A stretch of 64,000 nt of DNA. It comes from Bacilli bacterium. Lineage in GTDB: Bacteria; Bacillota_I; Bacilli_A; RFN20; CAG-826. The first letter of the stretch is position 1; each line of letters starts with the position of its first letter. Shown one piece after another: positions 8,158 to 51,245 of this stretch. Under the pieces are notes generated by a model, which was not told the DNA's origin, did no database searches, and saw only the letters and a program-made list of their open reading frames with translations. A program made the translations under genes and the position numbers. The stretch spans positions 36,490 to 100,489 of the forward strand of contig JAKSUL010000001.1 of NCBI GenBank assembly GCA_024409055.1. Reading direction: 5' to 3'.

Positions 8158-9527
8158 TAGATTGATACTCCTTGGACTTCTTCGAACGATTTTCCAGCAA
8201 GCAAGCCATCGATCTGGGCGTTAACCTCGATACAGACACCAACGATAATGATCATTGATGTACCACCGATCGCGAGGCTGCTGTCGTTTCCGAAGACGTT
8301 AGTCATAACCAATATATTCGGGAGCGCGCTGATGAAGGCCAACGCAATCGCACCGATGCAGGTGATCCTGTTGAGGACTTTTCCAACGTACTTCTCGGTT
8401 TCTTTGCCCGGGCGGATGCCAGGGATATAAGAACCGTTCTTTTGGAAGTTGTCCGCCAACTGTTCAGGGTCGATTTGCATTTGAGCGTAGAAGAAGGTGA
8501 ACGCGACGATTAGAACGATGTAGATGATGAGACCCCAAGGCATTTTCCAAGTATCGCCATCCAAGGTTTTCATCTCGAATAGGGTGCTATAAGAGAAGAT
8601 ACCAAGCCATTCGGCCTTACCGGCATCGCTAGAAATGAAGGAAGCGATGACGGACGGAGCCATCATGATGGAGGAAGCGAAGATGACCGGGATAACACCA
8701 GCGGAGTTCACTTTTAACGGCAAGAACGAAGCCTTGCTCATAGCGGCGCTTGGGCCGCTCTTTCCGGCGTGTTGGACCGGAATCTTCCTCTTCGAGAGCT
8801 CGATGAAGACAACGAAGCCCAAGATGAGGATATAGACGAGGATATAGAGAGCAAACTGAGCAGCTCCCTTGACCAACATTCCCGAGTCATCGAAGGAAGC
8901 GTTGGCGGTGATCCATTTGGACCACGCGTTGCTGATCTGAACCGGCAAGGAACGGATGCAGCCCGCGAAGATGACGATAGAGATGCCGTTTCCTAATCCT
9001 TTTTCGGTGATTTGGTCGCCGAGCCACATGACAAGCATGGTGCCAGCTAACATGATCACGACAAGGTAGGCGTAGCGCCAGAATCCGTCCACGCCCATAT
9101 TTGATAAATCGACGTAGTCGGAGTTTTCCATCGTCTTGATGATGCCGTAAGCCTGAACCGCTCCTAATAAGAGGGTGAGGTAACGGGTTGCCATCTCTTT
9201 CTTCTTACGGCCGTATTCACCTTGCTTAGATAACTCGGTGAGGGCCGGTAAGACGTCTTTGGACAGCAATTCGATGATGATCTGGGCGGTGATGTATGGC
9301 GAGACGCCGAGAGCAAACACGGAGAAGTTGCTAAGAGCACCACCTCCGAGGAGGTCCATGAGGGCAATGGCGTTAGCGCCGTTCATGGCGCCTTTGAGGG
9401 AGTCCTTAAGCTGGACGCCCGGCACCGTGATGGCCGCCCCGATCCTTATGACAAAGAGGATCATGACCGTGAAGAAAATACGGCCAACAATTTCTTTGTT
9501 TTTGAAGATCGAGACGAACTTTTTCAT
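8157..9527 (-). CDS. secY: preprotein translocase subunit SecY
   Basis: 456 aa; 10 TM helices; conserved position between rplO and adk. Confidence 0.95.
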   Translation of the reverse strand: MKKFVSIFKNKEIVGRIFFTVMILFVIRIGAAITVPGVQLKDSLKGAMNGANAIALMDLLGGGALSNFSVFALGVSPYITAQIIIELLSKDVLPALTELSKQGEYGRKKKEMATRYLTLLLGAVQAYGIIKTMENSDYVDLSNMGVDGFWRYAYLVVIMLAGTMLVMWLGDQITEKGLGNGISIVIFAGCIRSLPVQISNAWSKWITANASFDDSGMLVKGAAQFALYILVYILILGFVVFIELSKRKIPVQHAGKSGPSAAMSKASFLPLKVNSAGVIPVIFASSIMMAPSVIASFISSDAGKAEWLGIFSYSTLFEMKTLDGDTWKMPWGLIIYIVLIVAFTFFYAQMQIDPEQLADNFQKNGSYIPGIRPGKETEKYVGKVLNRITCIGAIALAFISALPNILVMTNVFGNDSSLAIGGTSMIIIVGVCIEVNAQIDGLLAGKSFEEVQGVSI

Positions 9528-19140: not shown

Positions 19141-19204
19141 AATTTGTTATTTTTTAAATAAATCAGCAATAATCGCTACTTTTTTTGAAAATCCGAAAGA
19201 AAAA

Positions 19205-19237
19205 AACCAGGCCTTATCGAGAAAAGCCTGATTTTCA
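19205..19237 (-). terminator. rho-independent terminator after queH
   Basis: Minus strand: caggc-13 nt loop-gcctg followed by gtttttt. Confidence 0.45.
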
Positions 19238-19280: not shown

Positions 19281-19940
19281 CTAATTTTTGGTTTTTGTCT
19301 CTTCTTTTTTGAGCATAGATTGGTAGGAGTAGACGCATCCGCAATATTCCTGTTTATATAGGTTATAGTGCTCTCTCATAGCTTGGCCTTTATCTATGCC
19401 CTTGTTCTTTTTGAAGTCGCTATAAAAGTATTTAGTCTTGCTGTGTTTGGCCTCTAAATCACGGCCGATAGAATTGAGTATTTGACTGTCTTTTTGACGA
19501 GAAATAGTCATGACTGTGCAGAAATAATCAAAGCCATTATTTTCGGCGTAGTCATATGCTTCTTCCATGCGTTTTCGATAGCAAATGCGACATCTCTCCC
19601 CGCCTTCTCTTTGAGTCGCGAAAGGAGCAAGGTCTTTCATGTATCCTTCGTTATCATATGGATTAATTATGACATTAATGTCATAACCGTAATCTTTCTT
19701 AATGGATTCAAGGAGTTTTAAAAGCTCATTAAGCCTTCTTTGATATTCGCTCTCTGGATAGATATTTGAGTTGTTGAAATAAAGGGCAACATCAAAATGC
19801 GGGCACAAAAAAGTCAAAGGGAAGCAAGAGCAAGGACCGCAGCAAACATGCATAAGCAAAGTGGGCTTTTTTTCACCAGAAAACGACTCGATCGTCGCCA
19901 CGCTTTTCTTGTAGTAATTTATCTTACCGTTATACGGCAT
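19281..19940 (-). CDS. queH: epoxyqueuosine reductase QueH
   Basis: DUF208-type; …LLMHVCCGPCS… Cys cluster. Start taken at MPYNGK… (ATG 19940, 1-nt overlap with queA stop) rather than ORF-track 20054. Confidence 0.85.
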   Translation of the reverse strand: MPYNGKINYYKKSVATIESFSGEKKPTLLMHVCCGPCSCFPLTFLCPHFDVALYFNNSNIYPESEYQRRLNELLKLLESIKKDYGYDINVIINPYDNEGYMKDLAPFATQREGGERCRICYRKRMEEAYDYAENNGFDYFCTVMTISRQKDSQILNSIGRDLEAKHSKTKYFYSDFKKNKGIDKGQAMREHYNLYKQEYCGCVYSYQSMLKKEETKTKN

Positions 19941-20997
19941 TAAAGATCCTCGTTTGAGGCGTAATCGAACGCTCCGTGGATAAACATTCCATCTCCAAAG
20001 GAGAAGAACCTGTAACCGGCCTTTACGGCGGTCTCGTAGCAATGCAACGTCCACTTTCTTCCCATAAACGCTGAAACAAGCATGACAAGAGTGCTCTTCG
20101 GCAAATGGAAATTGGTGATTATGGCATCGACTGCCTTATAGGCATAACCAGGATTGATAAAGATGTTCGTGTCTTCTTTGGTCGCCTTGAACGTTCCGTA
20201 TTTTCCATAGTTAGCTTCCAAAGTTCGAACAGAGGTTGTTCCGATGGCGATAATGCGTCTTCCCTCGGATTTAGCTTTGTTTAATCTAGAAGCGGCATCT
20301 TCGCTCATTTCGTAGAGTTCGGTGTGCATAACGTGATCTTTGGTGTCTTGGACTTTGACGGGGCGGAATGTCCCAAGGCCGATGTTGAGGGTGATGTCCA
20401 CCACTTCAACGCCTTTGTCGCGGAGCTTGGCGAAAAGTTCCGTCGTAAAATGGAAGCCGGCCGTCGGAGCCGCGGCTGAGCCCGGCACCTTGGCATAGAC
20501 CGTTTGATAATCGGAATTGTCCGATATCTGCTGCTTGATATAGGGAGGAAGCGGCATCTTTCCAAGCTTATCGAGTATCTCGAGGAAGATTCCAGAATAA
20601 TGGAACTCCATATGTCTGATGCCTTCTGGCAGCACCTCGACGCATGTGCAGGTTAAAGAACCATCGCCGAACGTGACGTTGCTCCCGACCTTTAGGGAAT
20701 GGGCATTGCCGCATAAGCATTCCCATCTATCACCTTCGAGCTGTTTTAAAAGAAGTACCTCGCAGTGACCGCCCGTTTCGACTTTAGTTCCAACTAAGCG
20801 AGCCGGAATGACCTTCGTGTTATTTCTGACCAAAACATCGCCTTCATGGAGGTAATCGGCGATATCCTTGAAAAGTTTGTTCTCAATGACCTTGTTCTCA
20901 CGGTCCACCACCATCAGGCGGCATTCATCCCTTTGTCTAGAAGGGGTCTGAGCGATTTGCTCTTCGGGAAGATAAAAATCAAATAGATTGATGTCCA

Positions 20998-20998
<1 letters not shown>
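19940..20998 (-). CDS. queA: S-adenosylmethionine:tRNA ribosyltransferase-isomerase
   Basis: 352 aa; N-terminus MDINLFDFYLPEEQIAQTP… typical of QueA. Confidence 0.95.
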
Positions 20999-22146
<1,148 letters not shown>

Positions 22147-22164
22147 TTATTTGCCTAAGGCAAA

Positions 22165-22668
22165 CTAGAAACGGAAATCTAAGTGACGATTCGCCCCAAA
22201 CGCATCATGGAAACCCTTATTTTTCTTTGTGACCATAAACAAGGCATAACCCACAAAAATCGCAATGGCTTCACCGATTCCGACGAAAAGCGCGCTTTCC
22301 CAAAACGGTAATTCAAGGAGCCAATTTAGCTCAAATCCAACGGCAAATGCGTTGATCAATATCGGCCAAATTGTCGCGATAAGTAATTTCGGAGACGCAT
22401 AGGCAACTAGGAGCGACGAAACCAAAGTAGCGGCAGTTCCAATAAGAACATCCCACATCCCCAAAGTCGATCCGAAGTTAGCCATTAAACAGCCCAAAGT
22501 AACGCCAATAACAAAATCCCTTCTAAAGAAGCATAGAAGGATCATTATCTCGGCTATCCTCACTTGGATTTGGCCAAAGGCAAATGGGGAAGTAACCATC
22601 GTAAGCAAAAAATAAATCGCCGCAACGATAGCGTTACTGGCGATTTTTCGGGTAAGTGAAACGGTCAT
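22165..22668 (-). CDS. queT: queuosine-precursor transporter QueT-like (ECF-type S component)
   Basis: 168 aa from ATG 22668 (AGGAGG 8 nt upstream); about 5-6 TM; immediately upstream of tgt-queA-queH and downstream of a preQ1-like aptamer. Confidence 0.65.
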   Translation of the reverse strand: MTVSLTRKIASNAIVAAIYFLLTMVTSPFAFGQIQVRIAEIMILLCFFRRDFVIGVTLGCLMANFGSTLGMWDVLIGTAATLVSSLLVAYASPKLLIATIWPILINAFAVGFELNWLLELPFWESALFVGIGEAIAIFVGYALFMVTKKNKGFHDAFGANRHLDFRF

Positions 22669-22674
22669 GAATTG

Positions 22675-22722
22675 GACCTCCTGATTTTTTAACGCTGGGT
22701 ACCGAGGCAACAGCGTAGAAAC
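22675..22722 (-). promoter_or_regulatory. predicted preQ1-I riboswitch aptamer in queT leader
   Basis: Minus strand RNA: ACGCUG-UUGCCUCGGUACC-CAGCGU-UAAAAAAUCAGGAGG. That is a 6-bp stem, 13-nt loop and A-rich tail running into the SD, as in the B. subtilis and T. tengcongensis preQ1-I aptamers. Confidence 0.55.
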
Positions 22723-22760
22723 ACTATACAAAGATTTGAAATTCGTTTCAACTTTGGAAG

Positions 22761-22784
22761 AAAAAAGCGGACACGTGTCCGCTT
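22761..22784 (-). terminator. rho-independent terminator after kinase-like gene
   Basis: Perfect palindrome gcggacacgtgtccgc followed on the minus strand by T6. Confidence 0.6.
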
Positions 22785-22786
22785 TA

Positions 22787-23368
22787 TTACCAATATTTGA
22801 CGGCCATTAAGACCATGTTTTTATTAACGACTTCTTCCGGAAGAGGGGTTACGTCTTCGCCGACGAGCCCTTTTCTTTTTAGCTCGGAAACGCATTCAGC
22901 GCCCCTGAACCAATAGCGAAGACCCGTTTTCTCAAGTTTATTCTCTTCCGTAAGGTCGGAAACCTTAATCGGGAGATAGAACATTTGAGAACCGCGCAAC
23001 ATGAAGTTCTGCGGTTTCCAATCCAAAGCAAGTTTGGCATATTTGGCAAAACGGTAGCAATCAAACAAAGCCTTGAAGTATTCTTCCGGCAAATCGCCTT
23101 CCGCCAATTTTTCCAAAACGGAAGTTTCGGGGAAATAATCGAAAACGATCACATGCGCCTCGTCATCGTGATAACAGACTTTAGCCATGTTGATGCCGGC
23201 TTTCTTTAGCCTTTTGTAATTGGCCAAAACCTCATCGTATCCTTCGTTATAAACGCGAACCATATAATGGACGCCGCTATAAACGCAGATATACGAGACG
23301 TGATCCTCGTGTTTTGCGAGGATGCTTTCGACGACGAATTTTTTGTTTTTTGCAACTATCGTTTCCAT
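22787..23368 (-). CDS. hypothetical 193-aa protein with protein-kinase-like catalytic-loop motifs
   Basis: LDWKPQNFML resembles the HRDLKPEN catalytic loop; IKVSDL sits 17 aa later at the DFG position; no Gly-rich loop. Confidence 0.55.
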   Translation of the reverse strand: METIVAKNKKFVVESILAKHEDHVSYICVYSGVHYMVRVYNEGYDEVLANYKRLKKAGINMAKVCYHDDEAHVIVFDYFPETSVLEKLAEGDLPEEYFKALFDCYRFAKYAKLALDWKPQNFMLRGSQMFYLPIKVSDLTEENKLEKTGLRYWFRGAECVSELKRKGLVGEDVTPLPEEVVNKNMVLMAVKYW

Positions 23369-49817: not shown

Positions 49818-51245
49818 TTACCTCTTTCTAATTTCTATATTCATGAATTTTGATACAACGGCTGGGTTGAATTTGCCCTTTGCCGATTTCATGACTTGTC
49901 CAATCAAGAATCCGATGGCTCTATCTTTGCCAGCCTTGAAGTCCGCGATGGACTGCGGGTTGGCGTCAAGAACCGCGTTGACGGCCGCGATGACTTCGTC
50001 GTCATTGCTGACCATTAACTGGATTCCGAGTTTTGCCTGAGCTTCTTTCGGTGAAATTCCCTCAGCAAGCACGGCGTTAAGGATATCAGCGCATTGTTTA
50101 TGGGTGAATCCGCCTTCCTGCATGTTGGAAATCTCGGCCAACACTTCAGGCTTTAACGGGAATTCATCAATGGCTATTCCGTTTTTGTTTAAGTACGCAT
50201 TAACCTCAACGATGAGCCAATTGGCCAATCCCTTCGGTGATTTAGCGTTTGCAAGGCCCCCTTCAAAATAAGTGGCGTTTTTGATATCGCTAAGAATGAT
50301 TTCGGCATCCGTAACGCTTAATCCGAGCTTAACGTACCTTTCCTTTTTGGAATCGTATAGTTCAGGACAAGTGGCGATGGCATCGTTGACAAATTCGTCG
50401 CTCAGCTTAATCGGAACAATGTTCGGCTCCGGGAAGTATTTGTAGTCAACAGCATCGGTCTTAACCCTCATGAGGACGGTCTTTCCGCTAGCTTCGTCAT
50501 AACGGCGAGTCTCCTGCTGAACCGGGGTTCCGGACAAAAGGAGAGAAGTCTGCCTAGCTATTTCGTAATCAAGAGCGGATTCGATGTTCTTCGTCGAGTT
50601 AAGGTTTTTGATCTCGACTTTAGTTCCGAATGTCGTTGAACCATATGGGCGGACGGAGATGTTGACGTCGCAGCGTAAGGACCCTTCTTCCATCTTGCCG
50701 TCGCTAGTTCCACTATAAACGACGATATTGCGGATAGCTTCGACGTAGTGCATGGCCTCGGTTCCGCTTCTCATCTCAGGCTTGGAGACGATTTCGACAA
50801 GAGGAACACCAGCGCGGTTATAGTCGAGGAGGCTGCAATCGGCTAGGTGAAGCTGTTTGCAGGTATCTTCTTCCATATGGATTCTTTCGATTCCGATTTT
50901 CTTTTCGTTTCCGTTTTTATCAAGAACGGTCAAGTAACCTTCTTTTCCGATCGGGCGGAACTGCTGGGTGATTTGGAACCCCTTCGGCAAGTCGCTATAG
51001 AAATAGTTCTTCCTGTCGAAATGGAGTTCGTGATCGATTTACATATGCAAGGCATTCGCGACCCTGATTGCATTAATGACGGCTTGTTTATTGACGACCG
51101 GCATAGTTCCTGGATAAGCCATATCAAGAAGGGCGACTTGGCTATTCGGATCACGGCTGAAGGAACAAGGAGCCGCGGAGAACATCTTTGATTTGGTTCT
51201 CATCTCGACGTGAATCTCGAGACCGATGACTGCTTCAAAGTTCAT
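49818..51245 (-). pseudogene. gatB: aspartyl/glutamyl-tRNA amidotransferase subunit B, interrupted by a single in-frame TAA (codon at 51039-51041)
   Basis: The two ORFs are in the same frame: …[41 protein letters not shown]…. The TAA sits where B. subtilis GatB has Glu (…ALNMEIATE…). Confidence 0.7.

Follow-up and report, generated by a model that had tools for sequence, protein, structure and literature searches.

That a pseudoknot sensing preQ1 shuts off a preQ1 importer is textbook biology. All aptamers of the preQ1-I class possess a G-C pair as the floor of the ligand pocket, a U in the loop L1, whose first U is a ligand contact, a cytosine immediately before the 3' strand of the helix P1 that pairs with preQ1, and an adenine in the loop L3 (PMC11625349). 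Three types are distinguished in this 2024 review and in the structural papers, from which the definitions used here were taken. Type I is typified by the signature UU...UC...ACUA and accommodates two stacked preQ1 ligands, type II has AC, and type III combines UU, a pyrimidine-rich loop and AC with an AAGG that is buried by Watson-Crick pairing (PMC11625349). The regulation of queT by preQ1-I riboswitches through burial of the Shine-Dalgarno sequence (SD) is likewise established (PMC11625349).

The queT locus and its leader

The DNA analyzed here is a single stretch of 64 kb (the window), which carries on its minus strand the genes queT, tgt, queA and queH, followed by a terminator-like hairpin:

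22165 to 22668, minus strand: queT, 167 aa, the putative regulated gene (Pfam PF06177, E = 8.8e-39)
20998 to 22125, minus strand: tgt, encoding TGT (Pfam)
19940 to 20998, minus strand: queA, encoding QueA (Pfam)
19281 to 19940, minus strand: queH, encoding QueH (Pfam)
19202 to 19236, minus strand: terminator-like hairpin after queH (terminator scan)

A 100% identical QueT of 167 aa with the same start is found at NCBI in the 'Bacilli bacterium' metagenome-assembled genome GCA_024500545.1. The overlap of queA and queH on which the original prediction had remarked amounts to 1 nt, as does that of tgt and queA. Its further statement that queCDEF are missing also proved accurate, with no QueC, QueD, QueE or QueF domain recovered from the 46 ORFs of the 64-kb window that were scanned; this absence, which pertains to the window and not to the genome as a whole, is consistent with precursor salvage. 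Elsewhere in the window gatB is split over two frames (49818-51245, minus strand), with a 390-aa ORF (49818-50990, minus strand) that begins at position 82 of the GatB_N profile and a 68-aa ORF (51039-51245) that resembles the missing N-terminal part of GatB; a frameshift or a fault in the assembly of this metagenome-assembled genome would account for the split.

Read on the minus strand, the leader of queT is UACGCUG-UUGCCUCGGUACC-CAGCGU-UAAAAAAUCAGGAGG-UCCAAUUC-AUG, and the candidate aptamer within it is the 41-mer 5'-UACGCUGUUGCCUCGGUACCCAGCGUUAAAAAAUCAGGAGG-3' (22717-22677). The stem, the 13-nt loop and the A-rich tail running into the SD that had been predicted here are all present: ACGCUG (22716-22711) pairs with CAGCGU (22697-22692) over 6 bp, the loop is UUGCCUCGGUACC (22710-22698), the tail is UAAAAAAUCAGGAGG (22691-22677), and the SD, AGGAGG, lies before an 8-nt spacer (22676-22669) that leads to the queT ATG at 22668. 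The outermost pair, A22716-U22692, is an addition to P1 that is not kept in relatives. The parts of the leader and its surroundings are as follows, with A-type denoting the variant, described below, to which the window element belongs:

22764 to 22785, minus strand: intrinsic terminator of the preceding gene, a 9-bp stem with a T-run
22723 to 22751, minus strand: promoter-like site for queT, sigma70-like with 10/12 matches (TTGAAA 22751-22746, 17-nt spacer, TATAGT 22728-22723)
22711 to 22716, minus strand: 5' strand of P1, (A)CGCUG; the conserved helix has 5 bp (22715-22711)
22708 to 22710, minus strand: L1, UU plus 1-3 variable nt (G in the window); the UU is invariant and equivalent to U6/U7
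22702 to 22707, minus strand: putative 5' strand of P2 (anti-SD), CCUCGG, invariant in the A-type
22698 to 22701, minus strand: L2, UACC; N22701 is variable, A22700, C22699 and C22698 are invariant
22692 to 22697, minus strand: 3' strand of P1, CAGCG(U), pairing with the 5' strand, with covariation
22685 to 22691, minus strand: L3, an A-rich linker of U followed by AAAAAA; the six A (22690-22685) are invariant in the 30 distinct A-type regions
22677 to 22684, minus strand: putative 3' strand of P2 and expression platform, UCAGGAGG, with the SD AGGAGG at 22682-22677

Transcription of queT is predicted to start at about 22716, at the foot of P1, and the terminator of the preceding gene at 22764-22785 sets queT apart as an isolated transcription unit. 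The ORF directly upstream of the element (193 aa, 22787-23368, minus strand) has no Pfam match and no evident link to queuosine, and it ends in a strong terminator of its own.

The element retains the positions by which preQ1-I aptamers contact preQ1, namely the floor G22711-C22697, U22710, C22698 and the A-tract of L3. By analogy C22698 would be the specificity cytosine, while comparison with solved preQ1-I structures suggests that L3 might engage the minor groove by 'A-amino kissing' and also contact the ligand. The dinucleotide before the 3' strand of P1 is CC (22699-22698), as against the AC or UC of the described types, and the tail reads A-U-C-A-G-G. Judged by the published type definitions, the sequence of the element sets it apart from types I, II and III, and it is not a standard member of the class; we refer to it as the CC-type.

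Covariance-model and motif searches

The Rfam family RF00522, to which the original prediction had pointed as its check, did not detect the element: there was no match at the gathering score (39 bits) in the whole 64-kb window, and none at E<=10 in scans of 201 nt (22600-22800) or even of 58 nt (22668-22725). A missing match at the gathering score does not by itself imply that a riboswitch is absent, since even relatives resembling the Thermoanaerobacter tengcongensis (Tte) aptamer attain only about 24 bits against the required 39. A covariance model of our own, built from 25 non-identical relatives of the variants other than the A-type, aligned the window element from end to end (1-40 of 40), at a score of only 15.3 bits (E=0.2); as a chance site at 9491-9523 received the same score, this model is unusable as proof. 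The folding energy of the hairpin is ordinary (z = -1.59 and -0.58), a measure that is uninformative for a hairpin of 5-6 bp.

We also searched with a grammar of the preQ1-I layout, which specifies a stem of 5 bp with G-C as its closing pair, a loop beginning with UU, containing CCU and ending in C, an A-tract and an AGG. It was matched twice in the window and in none of 300 dinucleotide-preserving shuffles, and of the two matches the one before queT has conserved counterparts in relatives. The other lies on the plus strand within feoB (36453-36500; AGGCG, a 19-nt loop, CGCUU and UGAAAAAUGAAGG) and has a G.U pair in its P1; this occurrence in the coding sequence is probably due to chance. On model scores alone the claim of a riboswitch would be rejected; the comparative data described below support it and rescue it.

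Related queT loci and variants of the element

Searching species-representative genomes with a profile of QueT homologues yielded 80 loci, most of them in uncultured Bacilli of gut and rumen. In 78 of the 80 an element resembling the preQ1-I pseudoknot, composed of P1, UU, a pyrimidine loop, C, an A-tract and AGG, occupies the same position before queT, and its P1 covaries. The predicted preQ1-I layout of stem, A-tract and SD is supported. The element is absent from two loci, L036 and L070, the former of which keeps the order queT-tgt-queA-queH. An alignment of all types with MAFFT aligned P1 and failed to align P2, for which reason P2 was compared on a parse into segments. Together with 17 metagenomic matches (see below) this parse comprised 96 elements, 44 of them unique, which fall into five variants:

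Variant A (the kind in the window), 40 elements: nGCUG UU n1-3 CCUCGG nACC CAGCn uuAAAAAA UCAGG AGG
Variant B, 31 elements: ACGUG UUCUU CCUCUG AAC CACGU cUAAAAAA CAAGG
Variant C, 6 elements: AGCUG UUCGUU CCGCAG UAAC CAGCU AUAAAAAA CAAGG, near the T. tengcongensis aptamer
Variant D, 17 elements: AAGUG UUn CCUUG nnnAAC CACUU ...AAAAA CAAGG
I-like variant, 2 elements: UC before the 3' strand of P1

For each of the four variants other than A, RF00522 is the top-ranked Rfam family (C 24.1, B 22.8, I-like 16.5 and D 14.2 bits), although its gathering score of 39 bits was reached by none of the 20 related loci scanned. Across the 44 unique elements 97.3% of the P1 cells are paired, as against 69.3% in shuffles, and the covariation score of P1 is 0.648 versus 0.142 (0/500 shuffles), with slid controls at <=0.195. 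Changes on both sides were seen in three of the five pairs, these being the three lower ones; the two top pairs, U-A and G-C, the latter forming the pocket floor, are invariant in all 44, as are the equivalents of C22698 and U22710.

The D-type loci (L007, L009, L016, L020, L023, L028-L030, L032, L035, L037, L043 and L051) show several peculiarities. The riboswitch follows directly on the stop codon of the upstream gene with no promoter nearby, P1 has 4 bp in some of them, and no more than 2-5 nt separate the end of the CAAGG strand from the AUG of queT, which makes the distance from SD to start unusually short. Most of these loci also have an extra 340-550 nt between queT and tgt.

The A-type was found at 40 loci representing 30 distinct regions, including 17 that were found without reference to any gene, and it always lies directly before queT. 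The 30 distinct regions have 31 invariant aptamer positions in common, while variation occurs in the 15 nt upstream, in the insert of 1-3 nt in L1, at one position of L2 and in the spacer between SD and ATG; the basal pair of P1 also varies, occurring as C-G, A-U and U.G. This distribution supports selection on the A-type as an RNA. The CC before the 3' strand of P1 is present in 19 of 19 unique A-type elements, and in 24 of the 29 distinct A-type upstream regions P1 is preceded, at a distance of 6-12 nt, by the end of a comparable -10 box.

The A-type search signature is CCUCGGNACC...UCAGG. Metagenomes were scanned with the pattern CCTCNNNACCNNNNNNNAAAAAANNAGGAGG, in which five positions of P2 and L2 and the entire 3' strand of P1 were left free. 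Of the 24 matches, 17 had a proper P1, and every one of these carried CGG...UC and lay directly before a QueT homologue; the remaining seven, with neither P1 nor queT, are chance matches. Even with the P2 positions free the scan revealed no variation of P2 within the A-type, the 17 real elements being identical in it.

A neighbor-joining tree of TGT groups all A-type loci into a single clade, whose sister lineage comprises two B-type loci. Read most simply, this topology makes the A-type a descendant of an ordinary preQ1-I element that occupied this position, with a single origin for its special features. From the sequence comparisons, the A-type or CC-type is very probably a lineage-specific variant of preQ1-I belonging to one clade of uncultured Bacilli and missed by RF00522.

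The putative pseudoknot helix P2

Two registers of complementarity are available to P2: CCUCGG may pair with UCAGG, leaving C22704 bulged, or CCUC may pair with GAGG. They are nearly equal in energy (-7.8 kcal/mol for CCUC/GAGG versus -6.8 to -7.9 kcal/mol for the UCAGG register), and both cover part of AGGAGG. Homology favors the proximal register, because the D-type offers only CAAGG for pairing. Comparison of the B-type with the A-type shows CCU[C]UG/CAAGG replaced by CCU[C]GG/UCAGG, in which a U-A pair becomes G-C, a compensated change in P2, while the pair next to the pocket goes from G-C to G.U. As P2 does not vary within the A-type, the case for this helix is made by its complementarity and by this one compensated change between types, which is a single event on the TGT tree.

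The queT-tgt spacer and the extent of control

The spacer of 39 nt between queT and tgt reads, on the minus strand, UUUGCCUUAGGCAAAUAAAUAUCUACAAUUAAUCCCGUU-AUG. It has no SD and contains a candidate promoter:

22136 to 22163, minus strand: promoter-like site for tgt, sigma70-like (TTGCCT 22163-22158, 16-nt spacer, TACAAT 22141-22136), whose -10 box stops 10 nt short of the tgt ATG at 22125

Distinct upstream regions of the related loci were examined for such sites, defined by at least 8/12 matches and a -10 box ending 4-12 nt before the start codon, and for SD-like 4-mers:

tgt: promoter-like site in 68 of 80 regions, SD-like 4-mer in 10 of 80
queT: promoter-like site in 0 of 72 regions, SD-like 4-mer in 60 of 72
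queA: promoter-like site in 0 of 70 regions, SD-like 4-mer in 69 of 70
queH: promoter-like site in 2 of 49 regions, SD-like 4-mer in 24 of 49

These patterns suggest that throughout the clade tgt-queA-queH (19281 to 22125, minus strand, in the window) probably constitutes a separate unit, transcribed into a leaderless or near-leaderless mRNA. With this unit having its own conserved promoter and lacking an SD, the riboswitch most likely governs only queT. The -35 region of tgt falls within a near-palindrome, TTGCC-TTA-GGCAA (22151-22163, minus strand), which could form a small hairpin after queT or serve as an operator; similar TTGCC...GGCAA arms are present in L083, L094, L099 and L103, and a GGCA..TGCC form in L053 and L068, such arms being found in some of the relatives and not in all.

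Proposed mechanism and alternative explanations

We consider it likely that 22717-22677 (minus strand) encodes a preQ1-I riboswitch of the CC-type, acting as a translational OFF switch whose control is limited to queT. In this model the queT mRNA would start at the foot of the 5-bp P1 helix, and preQ1 (7-aminomethyl-7-deazaguanine), when abundant, would stack on the G22711-C22697 floor and pair with C22698, while U22710 and one adenine of the A-tract would make further contacts to it. The bound ligand would stabilize P2 between the loop CCUCGG and the tail UCAGG or GAGG, and the resulting H-type pseudoknot would bury part of the SD AGGAGG and thereby lower the translation of queT. When the ligand is absent P1 alone would form and the ribosome-binding site would be free. 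The nested minimum-free-energy structure computed for the predicted transcript contains P1 as its sole helix and leaves the SD single-stranded. A transcription attenuator was also considered and rejected, as the 8 nt that separate the aptamer from the ATG hold no terminator.

The original prediction had suggested that all four genes may be under preQ1 control, and such an arrangement of one promoter, one riboswitch and one operon, with preQ1 controlling queT, tgt, queA and queH together, would accord with the order queT-tgt-queA-queH, which is kept in most related loci, and with the absence of any terminator-like site in the 39-nt gap between queT and tgt, a point on which the prediction was correct. 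Since no terminator precedes tgt, read-through from the queT promoter is possible or even likely. Nevertheless, the target of the switch as modeled is the SD of queT, which is separated by 8 nt from the ATG of that gene, and the aptamer is not followed by a terminator. Moreover, tgt lacks an SD and is preceded by a promoter-like site that is conserved in 68 of 80 regions, a feature shown by none of the 72 queT and none of the 70 queA regions, and translation of tgt from an internal, SD-less AUG on a read-through transcript would presumably be poor. The extension of control to the whole set of genes is not supported by these observations, and we regard a single preQ1-controlled operon as unlikely.

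The nature of the element itself could also be construed differently. It might sense no ligand at all and serve as a 5'-terminal stabilizing hairpin joined to a strong SD, or as a binding site for a protein, as would befit its want of a significant covariance-model match and its unremarkable folding energy. However, a hairpin alone has no need of 13 invariant nucleotides in loop and tail that mirror the preQ1-I contacts while the base of the stem and the flanks vary, nor would it be expected to replace elements recognizable by RF00522 at the same site in sister clades; this explanation is extremely improbable. A derivation from preQ1-I with a changed pocket that alters ligand preference or stoichiometry (discrimination between preQ1 and preQ0, or another 7-deazaguanine) is suggested by C22699, found where one-ligand types have A (AC) and the two-ligand type has U (UC), by the first P2 pair above the pocket, which is G.U or G-C in a new context, by the invariance of these changes across the whole clade and by the complete failure of the standard model RF00522 on the CC-type. 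Against this, all four known contacts of the alpha site are kept, the same content of QueT, TGT, QueA and QueH in the A-type and B-type clades leads one to expect the same metabolite, and the tail has AUCA where the two-ligand type has ACUA. In the two-ligand aptamer of type I, moreover, the published change C31U damages the second site, which counts against a CC-type with two ligands. We hold such an altered preference to be very unlikely. The proposal that the CC-type represents a fourth preQ1-I subtype, with a pocket remodeled by the C beside the specificity base and by the G.U or G-C pairs of P2, and with a different ligand preference, stoichiometry or switching, appears decidedly unlikely; were it true, an entire clade of uncultured Bacilli from gut and rumen would have conserved a subtype that is invisible to RF00522.

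The favored reading of a preQ1-I switch of the CC-type has several implications. Routine annotation leaves the riboswitches of this clade unmarked, because RF00522 misses the A-type and the relatives scanned score below its gathering threshold. The CC variant departs at the very nucleotide by which one-ligand and two-ligand subtypes are told apart, and hence offers a natural test case for the tuning of binding and switching. The apparent division of the operon by a conserved promoter would imply that feedback acts on uptake only, with the tRNA-modifying enzymes being made constitutively.

Comparison with described preQ1-I riboswitches

With type I, known from Carnobacterium antarcticum with its two stacked preQ1 molecules, the window element has in common the UU after the 5' strand of P1, a conserved C in the 3' tail and the association with queT. 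It departs from type I in having CC and A-U-C-A in place of UC and an A-C-U-A tail, and the readers of the second ligand, U16 O4 and C31, are without a rightly placed equivalent in the window. A two-ligand type I reading was rejected, as the UC and ACUA signatures are absent.

Type III, as in the leader of E. coli yhhQ (PDB 8fza), resembles the window element in its UU after P1, its pyrimidine-rich loop and a Watson-Crick CCU:AGG pairing that buries the SD, the counterpart of which in the window is putative. The description of type III best fits the B and D variants of the sister clades. Type III is characterized by AC and by an SD, AAGG, in which the first A touches the ligand; it is almost exclusively proteobacterial and linked to yhhQ, whereas the window element has CC and a UCAGG tail and belongs to queT in a lineage of uncultured Bacilli.

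Type II, represented by the leaders of T. tengcongensis queT and Bacillus subtilis queC and by RF00522, differs from the window element in its L2, which is UAAC as against NACC, so that the base before the specificity base is A where the window has C. The tails likewise differ (AAAAAAUCAGG in the window versus AAAACAAGG), as does the loop, which is CCUCGG in the window, and there is no match to RF00522; C-type relatives such as L019 are nearly Tte-like in their loop, CGCAGUAAC. With type II the window element shares the predicted architecture of a small H-type pseudoknot with a 5-bp P1 closed by G-C, the U after the 5' strand of P1, an L2 of 4 nt ending in the specificity C, an A-rich L3, a P2 that would use the first nucleotides of the SD and a probable translational control of queT.
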